Shown here in pieces: positions 19,260 to 42,560 of a stretch of DNA of 64,000 bases. The position numbers and the translations under genes were made by a program. The notes beneath the pieces are model-generated. The model saw only the letters and a program-made list of their open reading frames with translations, had not been told where the DNA came from and did not search any database. The DNA is from Ginglymostoma cirratum (taxonomy: Eukaryota): NCBI GenBank assembly GCA_024137785.1, contig JAHRHZ010000069.1:14519235-14583234 (forward strand), in the 5' to 3' direction. Position 1 is the stretch's first letter; every line of letters starts with the position of its first letter.

Positions 19260-22200
19260 TGTTCAAACTTCATAATGGTAGGGGTTAAAACTAAATTGGC
19301 ACATTGCGGATGCGTAGTGAAGTGCAGCAGGGGGTGATGCACAGACAGATATGGCAGAAGAACCAAGTCAGTCTAGAAGGCACTGTAAATACAGTCAAGT
19401 TAAGGCACAAGGGAACATGGTAACGCCTTTTGGCATTTAGTTTAATGCAAGGAGTCTTGCAAGTCAGGCAGATGAGTTGGGGTGGCGTTTGAATAATGCA
19501 TTGGGATGTAATATCATTGCTATCATGGAGACATGGTTGAGGAAGGGACAGGACGGACTGCTGATTAATCCAGAGTATAGAATCTTTAGACAAGATTGAC
19601 TGTGGCAGGGGTGGGGTGTGGGGTGCGGGGGTGGCACAAGGTGGAGAGTAAAAGAGAAGATGGTGTCACAACATTCACAAGCAGTCAATCATTGCAGTAA
19701 CTGGGGATGGAGGTTCCTGAAATGAGGTGAGATGGATAAAACTTAAAATCACTTCACTGGGGGTCTACCATCGACGGGAAGAGATGGAAACTCAGATGTG
19801 TAGGTAACTTCCAGAGAAGTGTAAAATCAATCGGATAATAATAGGGGATTTTAAATTCCTCAATATTAACTGAGACAGACAAAATGTACAAGGATTAGAG
19901 GAGAGGTTTTTTTTAAAAAGCACACAGAAAGTCCTACAAGAGAGGGGATGGTGCCGGATCTTATTCGAGGGAATGAGGCTAAACAAGTGATAGATGTAGA
20001 AGTGGGGGAGCATTTTGGTAATAGAGACCATAATTTGTTAAGATTTAAGCTAATTATGCATTAGGACAAAGGTGGACCAGAAATAAAGCCGTTGAACTGG
20101 GGGAAGGCTGATATTGATGAGATAACACAGGATCTGGCTAAAGTGAATGAGAACTAGCTATATGCAGGAAAGTCCACATCAGAGCAGTGGAAGATATTCA
20201 AAAAGGTAATAGTGAGAATTCAAGGTCAAGATGTTTCCAAGATGGGAATCACCAAATGCAGAGATCCTGAGGTGTCAAGGGATGTGCAGGCTTGGTTAAG
20301 GAACATAAGAACATAAGAACTAGGAGCAGAAGGAGGCCATCTGGCCCCTCGAGCCTGCCCTGCCATTTTATAAAATCATGGCTGATCTTTTTGAGACTCA
20401 GCTCCACTTACCCGCCCACTCACCATAACCCTTAATTCCTTTACTGTTCAAAAATTTATCTAGCCTTGCCTTAAAAACATTCACTGAGGTTGCTTCAACC
20501 ATTTCGCTGGGCAAGCTTATGATTACTACCGAAGGCACAAAACAGCAGGTGCTCTAGAGGATAATAGAAAGTACTGAAGGTTGCTTAAAAATGTAATTTG
20601 GAAATCAAGGAGTGGACATGACAAATACTTGAGGGTAACATTAAGGAAAATCCAAAGGCATTTTATATTTGGATCAGGAACATAACCAAAGAAAGAGTAG
20701 GGTCCTTAAGGGACAAAAGTGGCAATCTGGTGTGGAGCCAGAAGACATAGCTGAGGTTTTAAAAGAGGATTTACATCTGTATTCAGAGTAGAGAAGGACA
20801 ATGTCGGTCTAGAAATCAGGGAGGGAAACTATGACATAATTGCACAAATTGACATTGAGAGAGAGGAGATGTTATTGGTTTTAGCAGACTTGAAAGTGGA
20901 TAAAACCCCAGGTCCAGGTTTTATATATATCGAAGGCTGCTTTGGGAAGTCAAGGAAGAGATTACAGGGCCTCTAACATTAAATTTCAAATCCTCTCCAG
21001 CCACAGGAGGAGTCCCATGGAGATTAGAAGATATCTAACATGGTACAATTACTCACATATGGAGTTGGGATAAACCAGGAAACTATAGGCCAGTGAGTCT
21101 AACATGTATAGTAGGAAAACTGTTGGAAAGATGTCTGAGGGACAGAACTGACTTTCTCTTGGAGAGGCAAGTGTTAATCAAGGATATTCAGCACGGAAGA
21201 GGGAGATCACAAATATTGTTGAATTTTTCAAGGAGGTGACTGGGTGTGTGCATGAGGAAAGTGTAGTTGGTGTATTTTACATGGACTTCAGTCAAGTTTT
21301 GACAAGGTCTCGCATGGCAGACTGGCTAAGAAGCTCAGAGCTCATGGAATCCAGAGAAATTTGGCAAAGTGTATCCAAAATTAGCATAATGGCAAGAAGC
21401 AGAGGGTGATAGTCAAAGTGTGATTTTGAGACTCAAATGTGGTGCTGTGTCTTTTGCTGTTTGTTATGCCTTAACAGTCTAGGCATGAATGTAGGAGGTC
21501 TGACCAGTAAGCTCACAGATGGCATGAAAATTGTGGTGTGGTAAACAGCGAAGAGGAAAGCCTTAGACGACAGGGCAATATCGACAGGCTGGTCCAATGA
21601 GGAGAACGGTAGCAAATGGAATTTGGAAAATGAGAGGTGATACTTTTTGGGAGGACTGACAAGACAAGAGAGTACATGTTGAATGGCAGGACCCTAGAAA
21701 GAACAAAGAATTGAGGGAACTTTGTAAGCATGTCCCTAGATCCTTGAAGGCAGCAGGACACACAGACAAGTTAATTAAAGAGGCATATAGGATGCTTTCT
21801 TTTATTAGTTGAGAGATTGAATACAAGAGCAAGGAGGTTTTAATGGAGTTGGAAATGATATGAGTTAGACCACAGCTGGAGTACTGTTTGCATTTCTGGT
21901 CAGCAAACTATGTGAAGGATGTGATTGTACGAGAAAAGGGAAGGAAAAGATGCACGAGGATATTGCCTGGACTGGAGCGATTCAGCTATCAAGAGAGAGA
22001 CTTGATAGGTTGGGGTTGTTTTCCTTAGAGTAGAGATGGCAGAGAGGGAATTTAGTTGAGGTGTACCAAGGTCAGAGGGGCATAGACAGAGTAGATAAGG
22101 TGAAGCTTTTCTTCTTAGTGGAGAGGTCAATAACAAGGGGGCATAGTTTTCAGGGAAGGTGCAGGAGGCTTTTGTGATTTGTGATTTTATTTTTTCTCCC

Positions 22201-38199: not shown

Positions 38200-39600
38200 G
38201 TGGTTACAGACAAGACTGACTGTCAGTGAGGAGGGTAAATGTATTATGAAGGTAGAAGTGGAGGGTATTCAGTCTTTGCAATTCTCCAATAGGTTTGATG
38301 TTCTTGAAACAAATATGGATGAAAGTGGGGTCTGCAAGGTGCCAATCAAGTAGGGAAGTAAAGGAGGATGCAGTCGGATGGGATGTTAAGAAGGAAAAAC
38401 AGTTCTCCATAGCCAAAAGTGAGCATCCAGAAAGGTGTATTACCTGTTCATGCTAGCACTTTGATCATCTGCTCTGGGATGAAAAGGAGTTTGCAGTGGG
38501 AAGGGAAGGCCTCAGTCGTCATTGTCCGGGTAGGTACAAACAACAAAAGTTAGAGTAGCAACTGGGACGGCTAAGAGTGTATGACAAGCGAGGGACTAAA
38601 TTTAAAAACTAAAATCTCAAACGTATTGATTTCTGGATTATTTTTACTCGAGCCACATGTGGATTTGCATTGTGTAACTATGATTGGAGAGTTAAATGTC
38701 TGGGTCAAAGATTGGTGTAATTGAAATGGGTTTCTATTCATAGGGCACTGGTACCAATGGTGGGAAAATTGGGAACTATACCACTTCACCTGAACCATGC
38801 TTAGGGCTGTGTCATGGTAAGTGTAGAGGGTTTTAAAGTATATAGTGTGAGCCACGGTATTGGAAGGGTGGGAGAAAAGTATCAGGTGTGGAAGATGGGA
38901 TAAATTAGAGCAAAAACAAGGCAGCAATGCTAATCAAAATCTGTCAGGGACAGATTCTAGAGAGAGTGAACTCACAGACAAGACCAGAGATTACAAAAAT
39001 AATTTTAAAAAGGCACAGATTTTCTGATGGCCATACAATCCATGATCAGTGTTGAGGTCTCAACTATTCACAAACTATTTATAGTTTTACTGACAGGACT
39101 GAATGTACAGTAGTTAAATTTGTTGGTGACACAAGTTAGTTAAGAAATTAAGTCTAATGAGGACATAAAGATAGAATAGAATAGAGTGGCAATTAATTGT
39201 CACTTGTATTTATGAAAATACAGTGGTGAGTATAATGTGGAGCCATTTTGATTACAAAAAGAAATACCTGAGATAAAGTTAGGATAAAGTCCATCTTTAG
39301 TTCCCTCCATGGCTCCTGGATTTATGGAGTGACTGTGGGATGCAGCTGCTGCAGCCGCCCCAAGGCCCCTCAAGCAAGGATTTCCGGACCAGACCCACCA
39401 CTCTGATGATGAGAGTATGGAAATCTCTTCTCCAAAGAGCTTTGGATGTTGGCTCATGAATATTTTAAAGGTAGAGGTAGAATGATTTTGGACTAATAGG
39501 GGAGTCAAACGTGATAGGAGTACGCAGGGAAGTGGAGCTGAGCCCACGGTAAGATCTTATTGAGTAGCAGAGCAGGCTTGAGGGGTCGGATGGCCTCTTC
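38200..39600 (+). mobile_element. Heavily deleted CR1 remnant (ORF1 esterase region, RT fragment, tail)
   Basis: ctccaataggtttgatgttctt, gtaggtacaaacaac, gatttctggatta (ORF1 SGNH-like), aaatttgttggtgacac (KF.DD-like), tail gagcaggcttgaggggtcggatggcct. Confidence 0.6.
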
Positions 39601-39737
39601 CGTCTTTAAAGCGTGGTTTGTGTCAATTGTCAACATTATCCACTTTCGCCTTGGGATGTAATAATATTAAAAATGGTATTTGTGTTTCAGTAATACGTGT
39701 GCTTTGGGATTATATGACAGAAATTTCACGAATCTGT

Positions 39738-40188
39738 GATAACACAGTGTGGAGCTGGAGGAGTATTTCTGAGATGATTTCTGAAGAAGGGTCCCGACCT
39801 GAAACATCAACGTGGGAGGGATGCCGAGAAATACACAAAGATAAGAATATAAATTATTGTGGTGCAGTCGTGATGTTTGTAACGTTCGGCCAGGAAGCCT
39901 CATCTATTCCAGAGGTGTTTCATACCATATCTGGATAGATTCATTTCCAATATACACACAATAAATGGCCGGCCAGTGACAAATTCGTGAAGGGATAGTA
40001 AGAACTGCCGATGCTGGAGTGAGAGATAACAGTGTGGAGCGGGAGGAACACAGCAGGCCAGGCAGCATCACAGGTGCAGGAAAGTTGATGTTTCAGGTCG
40101 GGACTCTTCTTCAGAAATCATCTCAGAAATACTCCTCCCGCTCCACTCTGTTATCTCTCACTCCAGCATCGGCAGTTCTTACTATCCC
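39738..40188. mobile_element. Rearranged Penelope-type insert containing an inverted copy of its flank
   Basis: 13-bp TSD TTCACGAATCTGT (39725-39737, 40189-40201), two oppositely oriented hammerhead-like cores, and internal inverted repeats. Confidence 0.75.
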
Positions 40189-40364
40189 TTCACGAATCTG
40201 TCACTGGCCATTTATTGTGTGTATATTGGAAATGAATCTATCCAGATATGGTATGAAACACCTTTGGAATAGATGAGGCTTCCTGGCCGAGAGTTACAAA
40301 CATCACGACTGCACCACAATAATTTATATTCTTATCTTTGTGTATTTCTCGGCATCCCTCCCAC

Positions 40365-40822
40365 TTCACTCCCACCTCCCACTCTGTTCTCTTCTCCATT
40401 CACTCCTGCCTCCCACTTTGCTCTCTTCTCCATTCACTCCCACCTCCCACTCTGCTCTCCATTCACTCCTGCCTCCCACTCTGCTCTCTTCTCCATTCAC
40501 TCCCACCTCCCACTCTGCTCCCTTCTGCATTCACTCCCACCTCCCACTCTGCTCTCTTCTATATTCACTCGCACCTCCCACTCTGCTCTCTTTTCAATTC
40601 ACTGCCACCTCCCACTCTGCTCTCTTCTCCATTCACTCCCACCTCCCACTCTGCTCTCTTCTATATTCACTCCTGCCTCCCACTTTGCTCTCTTCTCCAT
40701 TCACTCCCACCTCCCACTCTGCCCTCTTCTCCATTCACTCCTGCCTCCCACTCTGCTCCCTTCTCCATTCACTCCTCGCTCCCACTTTGCTCTCTTCTCC
40801 ATTCACTCCCAGCTCCCACTTT
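40365..40822. repeat. Minisatellite, about 34-bp unit (ttcactcccacctcccactctgctctcttctcca), about 13 copies
   Basis: Directly visible tandem array with variant units (tcctgcc vs tcccacc); it produces the repetitive ORFs in all three + frames. Confidence 0.92.
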
Positions 40823-41399
40823 TCCCTATATAGGAGCTCAGTTTCTTTTGGCCGTGCTGCCCCTGCGGTTCGTGGATTTCTCTCCGCAATGTAGGCGGGA
40901 GATTTAATGAGAATCAGAATCCCGTTGACAGTCCACAGGCAGTAGCTCGCATCTCTTTCATTTCAGTACGGGATTTTTTTTTGTTGAAGATTGTGAAGTG
41001 TGTGACTGATCCATTAATTGGTGGGATCGGGATGGTTTCGGAGTTGCTGCTGCTCGCTGCTCACATGGTATGGGGGGGAGGATTAAAACAGCTGCTGGGA
41101 GAAGGGTAACTGCACATTCATTCAGAATGAGGGGTATTATCACATTAGCACGCATCATCTCGTCTCCAGCAATACCGCAAAGGGTTATGTTTCAGCTGTG
41201 GACGTGTAACTGGATGTTATAAACTAATGCACAGTCTAGCTACTTTTTATTAATTCCGATCAAGACTAATTCGAAATTCCAAACCAGCATCGAAGAGACA
41301 GCCATAAAGAGATGGCTGGGGAAATTACAGTCCGATTGAAAACAAAACAAACAAAACTCTGAATCAATTTGTATTGCGAAACGAAATAATTAGAAGTTC

Positions 41400-42560
41400 C
41401 AAGGCACCATCCCACAGCGAGACGTTCTCACTGTCTGGAGAAGGTTATAGGTTACAACACAACGCTAAAGTTGAACGACTCGAAGTGAGTAAAGCACCGG
41501 GAGCAAAGACTGACCTCGACCGAAGTCTTTCCGTGTGTGTGTGTGTGTGGTGGGGGGGGGTGGGGGGAAGCAGTTTTGTCCCTCTTGGATAAGGAAGGCG
41601 GAGAGGGCGGTGCTTGGACACCCTGTTCTAGGAAGTCTCGGGCGAGCTGTTCCTCTCCAGTGAGAAGTGAACAGCCTCAGGCACCGAGGGACAGTACGCT
41701 GCTGCACCTTTGGACGTGAAGGGGGGGTGGGGGGCGTTCTGGAAACAAAATAAACAACTCATTGGTGCCCGAGAGCCCAGGACGTGCAGGCTGGGGAGGT
41801 GCATCCAAAACCAGAAAATGGGATTCGACCCCGAGCGTTTCAGTGAGGACGTGGATCCTGACTTCAAGTGCAACCTGTGCAATAAAGTGCTGGAGGATCC
41901 GCTGGCCACTCCGTGCGGGCACGTCTTCTGCGCCGGCTGCGTGTTGCCCTGGGTGGTGCAGAGGGGCAGCTGCCCGGTGCAGTGCCGCAGGCTCGGTCCC
42001 CGGGAGCTCAACCACGTCCTGCCGCTCAGGAACCTCATCCTCAAGCTGGAGATCCGCTGCGGTAACTGGGAGCGGGGCTGCGCCAAGGTGCTGAGGCTGC
42101 AGCACTTGGCCGAGCACGCCGAGATGTGCGAGTACGCGCTGGCTGAGTGCAGGAACCCGGGCTGCGGCCAGGCGCTGAGTCTGCGGGACGTGGACGCTCA
42201 CATGCGGGAGAGCTGCGAGCAGCGGGCGGTCGGTGTGTGCCAGCAAGGCTGCGGCTTGGTGCTGGTGCACAGGGAGCTCCGCCTCGACTCTCACTGCTGC
42301 GTGCAGGCTCTGAAAGCGCACGGCCAGGCGCTGCAAGCTCAGCTCACCGGTCTGCAGCGCCAGCTCAGAAAGCAGGCATTGAGAGCCGGCAAACGCGAGA
42401 AGTCGCTGCTCTCCCAGCTGTCAGCCCTGCAGAGTGAGCTGCAGATGGCAGCTCTCCGATACCAGAAGAAATTCACCGAGTACAGCGCCAGGATCCGCTC
42501 CCTGACTAAGAACAGCCCCGCTCCGTGCAGCGTGAGTGCCTTTTCTTGGGTCCTGCTTCA
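41400..42560. promoter_or_regulatory. CpG island over the promoter/5' UTR and exon 1 of the PDZRN3-like gene
   Basis: Marked rise in GC and CpG against an AT-rich, CpG-poor background. GC-box-like aggcgg/gggcgg near 41596-41610; (GT)n and G runs at 41533-41567. Confidence 0.7.
41818..42531 (+). CDS. PDZRN3: PDZRN3-like E3 ubiquitin ligase, coding exon 1 (RING finger, TRAF-type zinc finger, coiled coil)
   Basis: ATG in strong context (gaaaATGG). [48 protein letters not shown]...[12 protein letters not shown]...[18 protein letters not shown] matches recalled PDZRN3. 714 nt, phase 0, donor gtgagt at 42532. Confidence 0.93.

Follow-up and report, generated by a model that had tools for sequence, protein, structure and literature searches.

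The units in which Penelope-type retroelements insert have a 5'-truncated copy in inverted orientation next to the 5' end, a tail of 30-40 bp on one side and a target-site duplication, or TSD (PMC3846280, PMC8557442). Inverted repeats are also a general feature of the edges of microinversions (PMC8755829). The locus described here combines both kinds of structure within 640 bases (39725..40364) of a 64,000-nt stretch of the Ginglymostoma cirratum genome, referred to as the window (contig JAHRHZ010000069.1, positions 14,519,235 to 14,583,234; all coordinates are those of the window). A first-pass annotation, made from the letters alone, had described a Penelope-type insert carrying an inverted copy of its own downstream flank and attributed the copy to a switch of reverse transcription or repair onto the target DNA during integration. 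We consider it probable that the locus is an old 3' stump of a Penelope-type element, framed by a 13-bp TSD, in which, much later, a likely single slip of DNA synthesis inverted a 36-bp segment and duplicated the block on either side.

The arrangement and its junction sequences are directly shown in the assembly sequence (Table 1). Blocks are named such that a prime denotes the reverse complement and t the first 25 nt of T; from left to right they follow as A, t', Y, F', T', S', Y', T, F, and then a minisatellite.

Table 1. Features of the rearranged locus and its right-hand neighbourhood
Feature	Position	Strand	Evidence or remark
A, left target-site duplication, 13 bp	39725..39737	+	identical to 40189-40201; direct repeats of sister copies are 7-17 bp
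t', short inverted 5' piece of the element without the 33-nt tail, integration-born	39738..39762	-	25/25 identical to subfamily consensus columns 72-96
Y, left duplicated block in its original copy: 14-nt junction filler, then 35 nt from the start of the element core, bearing hammerhead-like boxes	39763..39811	+	48/49 identical to reverse complement of 40084-40132
New junction 1, blunt, without microhomology; links Y to the distal flank end on the opposite strand	39811..39812	.	reconstruction
F', 176 bp of right flank copied in inverted orientation, plus a 4-nt gain; decayed short repeat at about 39843-39957	39812..39991	-	arm alignment, genome search, relatives
T', inverted copy of the last 56 nt of the element	39992..40047	-	55/56 identical to 40133-40188
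S', inverted single-copy 36-bp middle of the element	40048..40083	-	when re-inverted, occupies the interval that separates Y from T in the consensus
Y', inverted copy of Y	40084..40132	-	arm alignment
New junction 2, return switch in a perfectly matching 6-bp stretch at the inner edge of the 25-bp inverted repeat t'/t	40133..40138	+	model fit best with the switch 0-6 nt into t
T, original 3' end of the element with tail	40133..40188	+	arm and consensus alignments
F, right flank, opening with the second TSD copy (40189-40201)	40189..40364	+	repeat and genome searches
34-bp minisatellite, 13.6 copies, 84% pyrimidine on the + strand	40365..40820	+	begins 1 base past the copied block
Neighbouring RING-finger gene, first coding stretch tested, outside the rearrangement	41818..42498	+	Pfam zf-C3HC4_2 E 2.2e-09, Sina_ZnF E 0.00019

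The geometry reported by the first-pass annotation is borne out on re-analysis. The window contains exactly two occurrences of the 13-bp direct repeat (39725-39737 and 40189-40201); the arm it called X (39812-40047, 236 bp) differs from the reverse complement of 40133-40364 by 5 substitutions and one 4-nt gap; and its arm Y (39744-39811) matches 40084-40151 with 95.6% identity over 68 nt (E 1.5e-25), a match that can be extended to 39738 and 40155 with a 2-nt gap. The crossed order Y-X-spacer-Y'-X' follows from these arm coordinates, with Y' and X' overlapping by about 23 nt (40133-40155), and the repeats are crossed because Y is doubled, S is inverted and single, and T together with F is doubled. 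Counted by block, the mismatches are 1/49 between Y and Y', 1/56 between T and T', and 4/176 between F and F', to which the 4-nt gain in F' is added. The partner of X does lie partly in host flank, with 176 bp (40189-40364) outside the insert; this flank has two places in the genome and one further 63-nt match of 79% identity (3/3 candidates scored, very common words skipped). A decayed short SINE had been read in the flank: a repeat is present, with a weak match (67% over 116 nt) to another locus, L003, whose matching piece has several relatives of 66-73% identity in the sample. A tRNA-derived origin would be putative; a tRNA search with ARAGORN found nothing. A further decayed repeat, 68% like 20333-20488, is located just upstream at 39453-39597, and contig depth is very high at 39552-39607.

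The insert is the 3' stump of a very abundant Penelope-type family, and the identity proposed for it earlier is supported by several features of the unit. An inverted 5'-truncated copy adjoins the 5' end in the form of t'; the tail is confined to one end, since t' ends at core column 96 and columns 97-129 (33 nt) are found in the direct copy only; and the target-site duplication is identical at 13/13 positions. A genome search for Y S T returned at least 4000 candidates, of which 40 were scored. In a random sample of 100 evenly spaced 10-kb stretches (461,057 of the 1,000,000 bases are N and 538,943 are readable), 94 family matches were found, comprising 24 of the same subfamily, 54 of a sister subfamily and 16 unassigned; the counts of 24 and 94 scale to roughly 2 x 10^5 and 8 x 10^5 fragments, respectively. 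Clusters with both orientations made up 21/101 in this sample, and all 40 of the two-orientation clusters tabulated are head-to-head palindromes; in many of them the inverted piece is short and 7-17-bp direct repeats are present. In longer copies, broken frames precede the 3' end and show a weak GIY-YIG match: upstream of the sister copy L020 it reaches E 0.0016 and 19.1 bits, under the cut-off of 22.6, and none is found at the present locus. The frame that precedes it gave no Pfam match (2 frames scanned), and a YIDD motif is visible there. Boxes resembling those of a hammerhead core are legible by eye in the consensus, and a CpG at the cleavage triplet is gone from both local copies of this hammerhead-like segment. 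An Rfam search of 39400-40900 gave no hammerhead at E <= 1, and only 5 sub-threshold matches to miRNA hairpins; these were rejected as miRNA precursors, being far under the gathering scores and explained by the long hairpin.

Several other loci have features of their own. In the sister copy L011 (1501-1954; G000:C69, locus 28846578-28849703) the spacer consists of four tandem 58-nt repeats of the hammerhead-like segment. L093 (4781-5972) is an old 1.2-kb palindrome that resembles a further family of Penelope type; inserted in it are a palindromic stump of younger age and a 17-bp direct repeat. The 91-nt spacer of a palindromic copy at L021 (2810-2900) contains a small hairpin and an apparent piece of another repeat, and no local source was found for it.

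Re-inverting S' and removing the extra copy of each doubled block yields the order left flank, A, t', Y, S, T, F, whose element part is collinear with the whole 129-nt subfamily core (118/127 identical, one 2-nt gap). We infer from this order that the ancestor was an ordinary family copy. Two template switches on the reconstructed ancestor suffice for the present sequence: they rebuild the 861-nt stretch with 6 mismatches and 1 gap, which equal the differences between the arms, a fit that is partly so by construction.

Sister copies and relatives suggest that the first step would have been an ordinary truncated insertion, giving left flank - TSD - t' - Y S T - TSD - F. In the second step, the element would first have gathered mutations, after which a polymerase copying from left to right, at a stalled fork or at a break, would have stopped at the end of Y. 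It would then have made a homology-free jump to the opposite strand at the minisatellite edge, landing on the base that directly precedes the repeat, and from there have synthesized 321-327 nt in reverse (F' T' S' Y'). The return to the original strand would have taken place at the match between t' and the beginning of T, in the initial 6 nt of t, a perfect stretch of the otherwise imperfect 25-bp t'/t repeat. The minisatellite edge may have had a role in the first switch. The canonical G-quadruplex pattern is absent from the minisatellite, and a G-quadruplex stall is not proposed. The onset of the minisatellite coincides exactly with the breakpoint, and contigs of relative A (see below) stop 31 letters beyond, which suggests that a repeat was already present. 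The reverse transcriptase of the element likely took no part in the second step, to which the element contributed its short inverted repeat only.

A different route to the same product, with timing unchanged, would be two pairs of staggered nicks followed by fill-in and end joining. That model predicts exactly an inversion with inverted duplications at both breakpoints, the duplications attributed to staggered breaks in Drosophila have a median of 321 bp (PMC1885836), and the blunt junction 1 would suit nicks and end joining. Junction 2, however, falls in the 25-bp inverted repeat that the element itself provides, at 6 perfectly matching bp, a position unexpected from random nicks, and the inverted core of just 36 bp, shorter than both duplications, also counts against them. 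We regard staggered nicks as unlikely here and retain the two template switches as the preferred route.

The age of the duplication relative to the insertion separates a later rearrangement from the mechanism proposed in the first-pass annotation. A template switch onto neighbouring DNA is upheld; its timing during integration is opposed by the arm ages, by rare shared mutations and by the relatives. Arms made at integration begin identical. The doubled blocks now differ at 6/281 sites, against 115/1158 for the integration-born arms of 16 same-subfamily palindromes from hit-centred loci (Fisher p 3e-6), and are thus about 5 times closer to each other than such arms in sister copies. Shared versus private changes number 6:2 here and 18:115 in the 16 palindromes (p 3e-4), with independence overstated because 4 of the 6 shared substitutions are common in the family, representing CpG decay or polymorphic columns. 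A substitution found in 0/24 sampled subfamily copies is common to T and T', as is a 2-nt deletion; t' has neither of these, being equal to the consensus. These two are the firm shared changes. A 25-nt motif that combines them is found 4 times in 4.36 Gb, and since the remaining 3 copies have no other rare change in common with T, a donor lineage is ruled out as the source of the rare changes in T. Since these changes are present in T and T' but not in t', and since there is no donor, T had aged before it was copied. Comparison with the divergence of relative A gives 4/176 for the flank-only arms versus 12/208 (p 0.12, not significant) and, for all arms versus the left flank of run X1, 6/281 versus 28/488 (p 0.018). 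Arms with zero differences over 23-44 nt occur in 3/40 palindromes, so young or homogenised arms do exist in the family.

Among the 24 sequencing runs listed for the stretch, none is from the window's own species, the largest share of its words in any run being 0.20. No RNA run is among them, which is uninformative on expression. Relatives were compared on 39300-40132 in 4 of 13 matching runs, namely X1 and X6 (relative A, two studies) and X12 and X13 (relative B, one study); over long pieces the divergence is about 5.9% for A and about 7.8% for B. In A, a piece from X1 runs from the left flank into t', and the flank is covered in X1 and X6 by one contig per run at the depth of neighbouring single-copy sequence; these flank contigs end in 31 letters that do not match Y. 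The X1 contig passes through T' and 5 nt into S', in the order of the ancestor. The relatives agree with the right-hand copy F at 39884 and 39885, and A also is without the 4-nt gain. In B, one contig per run passes from the left flank and t' directly into the middle part of F; its coordinates would fit t', the first 2-4 letters of Y, and then a later deletion. These B contigs (X12 record 9 and X13 record 17; window 39553-39930) apparently lack the greater part of the element together with 55-59 bases at the start of the right flank, a loss that would be a second rearrangement of this stump, independent of the first.

The contigs of the relatives fit the un-inverted, single-copy order at both ends, as pieces that show presence and none of which spans the whole locus; the t'|Y join is not among the parts of A that these pieces show directly. 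The join of Y to F', or a flank copy, was not seen in the A or B contigs of the 4 runs, where contigs show presence and not absence. Because both A and B carry the insertion, the insertion predates both splits; and as the A contig aligns without an extra gap, the 2-nt deletion appears in A and is older than the A split. Taken with the arm comparisons, the sequences point to an old insertion and, likely, a later inversion with duplications at both breakpoints.

The opposing account, that the flank was copied during integration by reverse transcriptase or repair switching onto the target DNA and that the arms were later kept alike by conversion, draws on two precedents. L1 insertions can bring local inversions or inverted duplications (10.1101/2024.12.14.628481), and within the family a palindromic sister copy, L012 (1289-1350 and 1628-1690; G000:C77, locus 22830651-22833778), has at its fold point an inverted 62-nt copy of flank from nearby, with 88.7% identity and about the age of the element arms, which makes it a candidate for capture at or near integration. 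At the present locus, however, the relatives have the insertion with a single-depth flank and no Y|F' join, so that an origin at integration would need loss in both A and B. Conversion is opposed by ordinary palindromes, which have shorter spacers and yet are mostly not homogenised (median arm divergence 8-9%), and by the two arm pairs being equally young although they are unable to pair simultaneously. An L1-type event would have made the duplication as old as the insertion, and the arms here are younger. We therefore hold copying during integration to be very unlikely and favour the later inversion-duplication.

The relatives bear likewise on whether the structure is an assembly or fold-back artefact of the window's genome, a reading that we judge highly improbable. 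Both new junctions are known from the assembly sequence alone, two N gaps lie in the window, and tandem or inverted structures of Penelope-like elements trouble assemblies (PMC8557442). Against this, the copies differ at 6 sites and by the 4-nt gain, the inverted copy is derived at the three sites visible in the relatives, and a fold-back read would be expected to give one symmetric palindrome and not two crossed repeats with a flipped core. The preferred reading is again a genuine rearrangement of an old stump.

A count of family insertions with inverted flank copies, as suggested with the first-pass annotation, was run on samples and gave 0/101 in the random clusters and 1/47 in the hit-centred clusters after inspection. 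In the random sample a script had flagged 10/101 clusters, and all 10 were unmasked copies of other Penelope-type subfamilies or nested insertions; in the hit-centred sample 5/47 were flagged, of which one is real (L012, above), the two of L005 being judged element sequence. The integration mechanism of the first-pass annotation may occur rarely in the family, and not at the present locus.

The locus lies just upstream of a CpG-rich gene start, at the distance of about 1.5 kb reported before: the ATG at 41818, which opens a frame with RING and Sina-type zinc-finger domains (Pfam), is 1454 bp from 40364; the name PDZRN3-like for this gene is that of the first-pass annotation. Alternative long hairpins had been envisaged, and their balance is not reproduced by the predicted RNA fold, in which X and X' form 229 pairs and Y and Y' 0; pairing of the X arms is predicted at -452 kcal/mol and excludes that of Y, which alone would reach about -125. 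Cruciform extrusion would be unlikely with a spacer or loop of 85 nt. The product is most likely neutral, given that the structure is lineage-specific and that B has lost most of the element. A more far-reaching proposal, that 10^5 or more dead palindromic Penelope stumps seed local duplication-inversions and that here a lineage-specific 230-bp dsRNA hairpin, 1.5 kb from a promoter, is transcribed and alters gene regulation, is in our estimate quite unlikely.

As it stands, the locus is one clean, datable fossil of a known rearrangement class and of little significance, and it is likely an ordinary mutation scar, neither a new element nor a new way of inserting. It does carry a caution: an inverted flank copy inside a TSD-bracketed retroelement mimics an integration product and can be far younger, and since the flank copy can postdate the insertion, such cases are unfit for inferring how Penelope integrates. 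It would gain weight if such rearrangements proved, in a genome-wide count, to arise regularly at inverted Penelope stumps, or if transcripts of the hairpin existed.

A search of the accessible literature found no publication on a post-insertion inversion-duplication at a Penelope stump; the closest described systems each share part of the structure. The endonuclease-bearing Penelope-like units (PMC3846280, PMC8557442) are alike in 5' truncation, an inverted 5'-truncated copy, a 30-40-bp tail at one end and a TSD; in them the inverted arm is element sequence, whereas the flank copy described here is a later addition. The L1 insertions that come with an inversion or an inverted duplication of their target DNA (10.1101/2024.12.14.628481) resemble the locus in placing a retroelement beside inverted neighbouring DNA, but that type arises at the insertion break, while the duplication here is younger than the insertion and element sequence is doubled at both ends. 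Four-point template switching (PMC7954356) and microinversions at inverted repeats (PMC8755829) share with this locus two switches, a nearby reverse-complement template, a net gain and a repeat at a switch point. The locus can be explained by the two switches and the reverse-complement copy of a local template that define four-point switching, with a copy length above the published range: the copied segments in the great ape set have a median of 12 and a maximum of 128 nt (PMC7954356), compared with 321-327 nt here, and just one of the two switches is at a repeat, unlike the pattern of PMC7954356 and PMC8755829. Inversions from staggered breaks (PMC1885836) and the dupINVdup class (PMC5338099) have the same crossed inverted repeats, duplication of both breakpoints and lengths of tens to hundreds of bases; they differ from the present case, which occupies less than 0.6 kb in all, has a core of 36 bp and places one junction in the inverted repeat of a retroelement. 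An inverted segment with inverted duplications of both breakpoint regions, as found here, is what characterizes that class, and we propose that the product is likely an inversion with duplications at both breakpoints, of the dupINVdup type.
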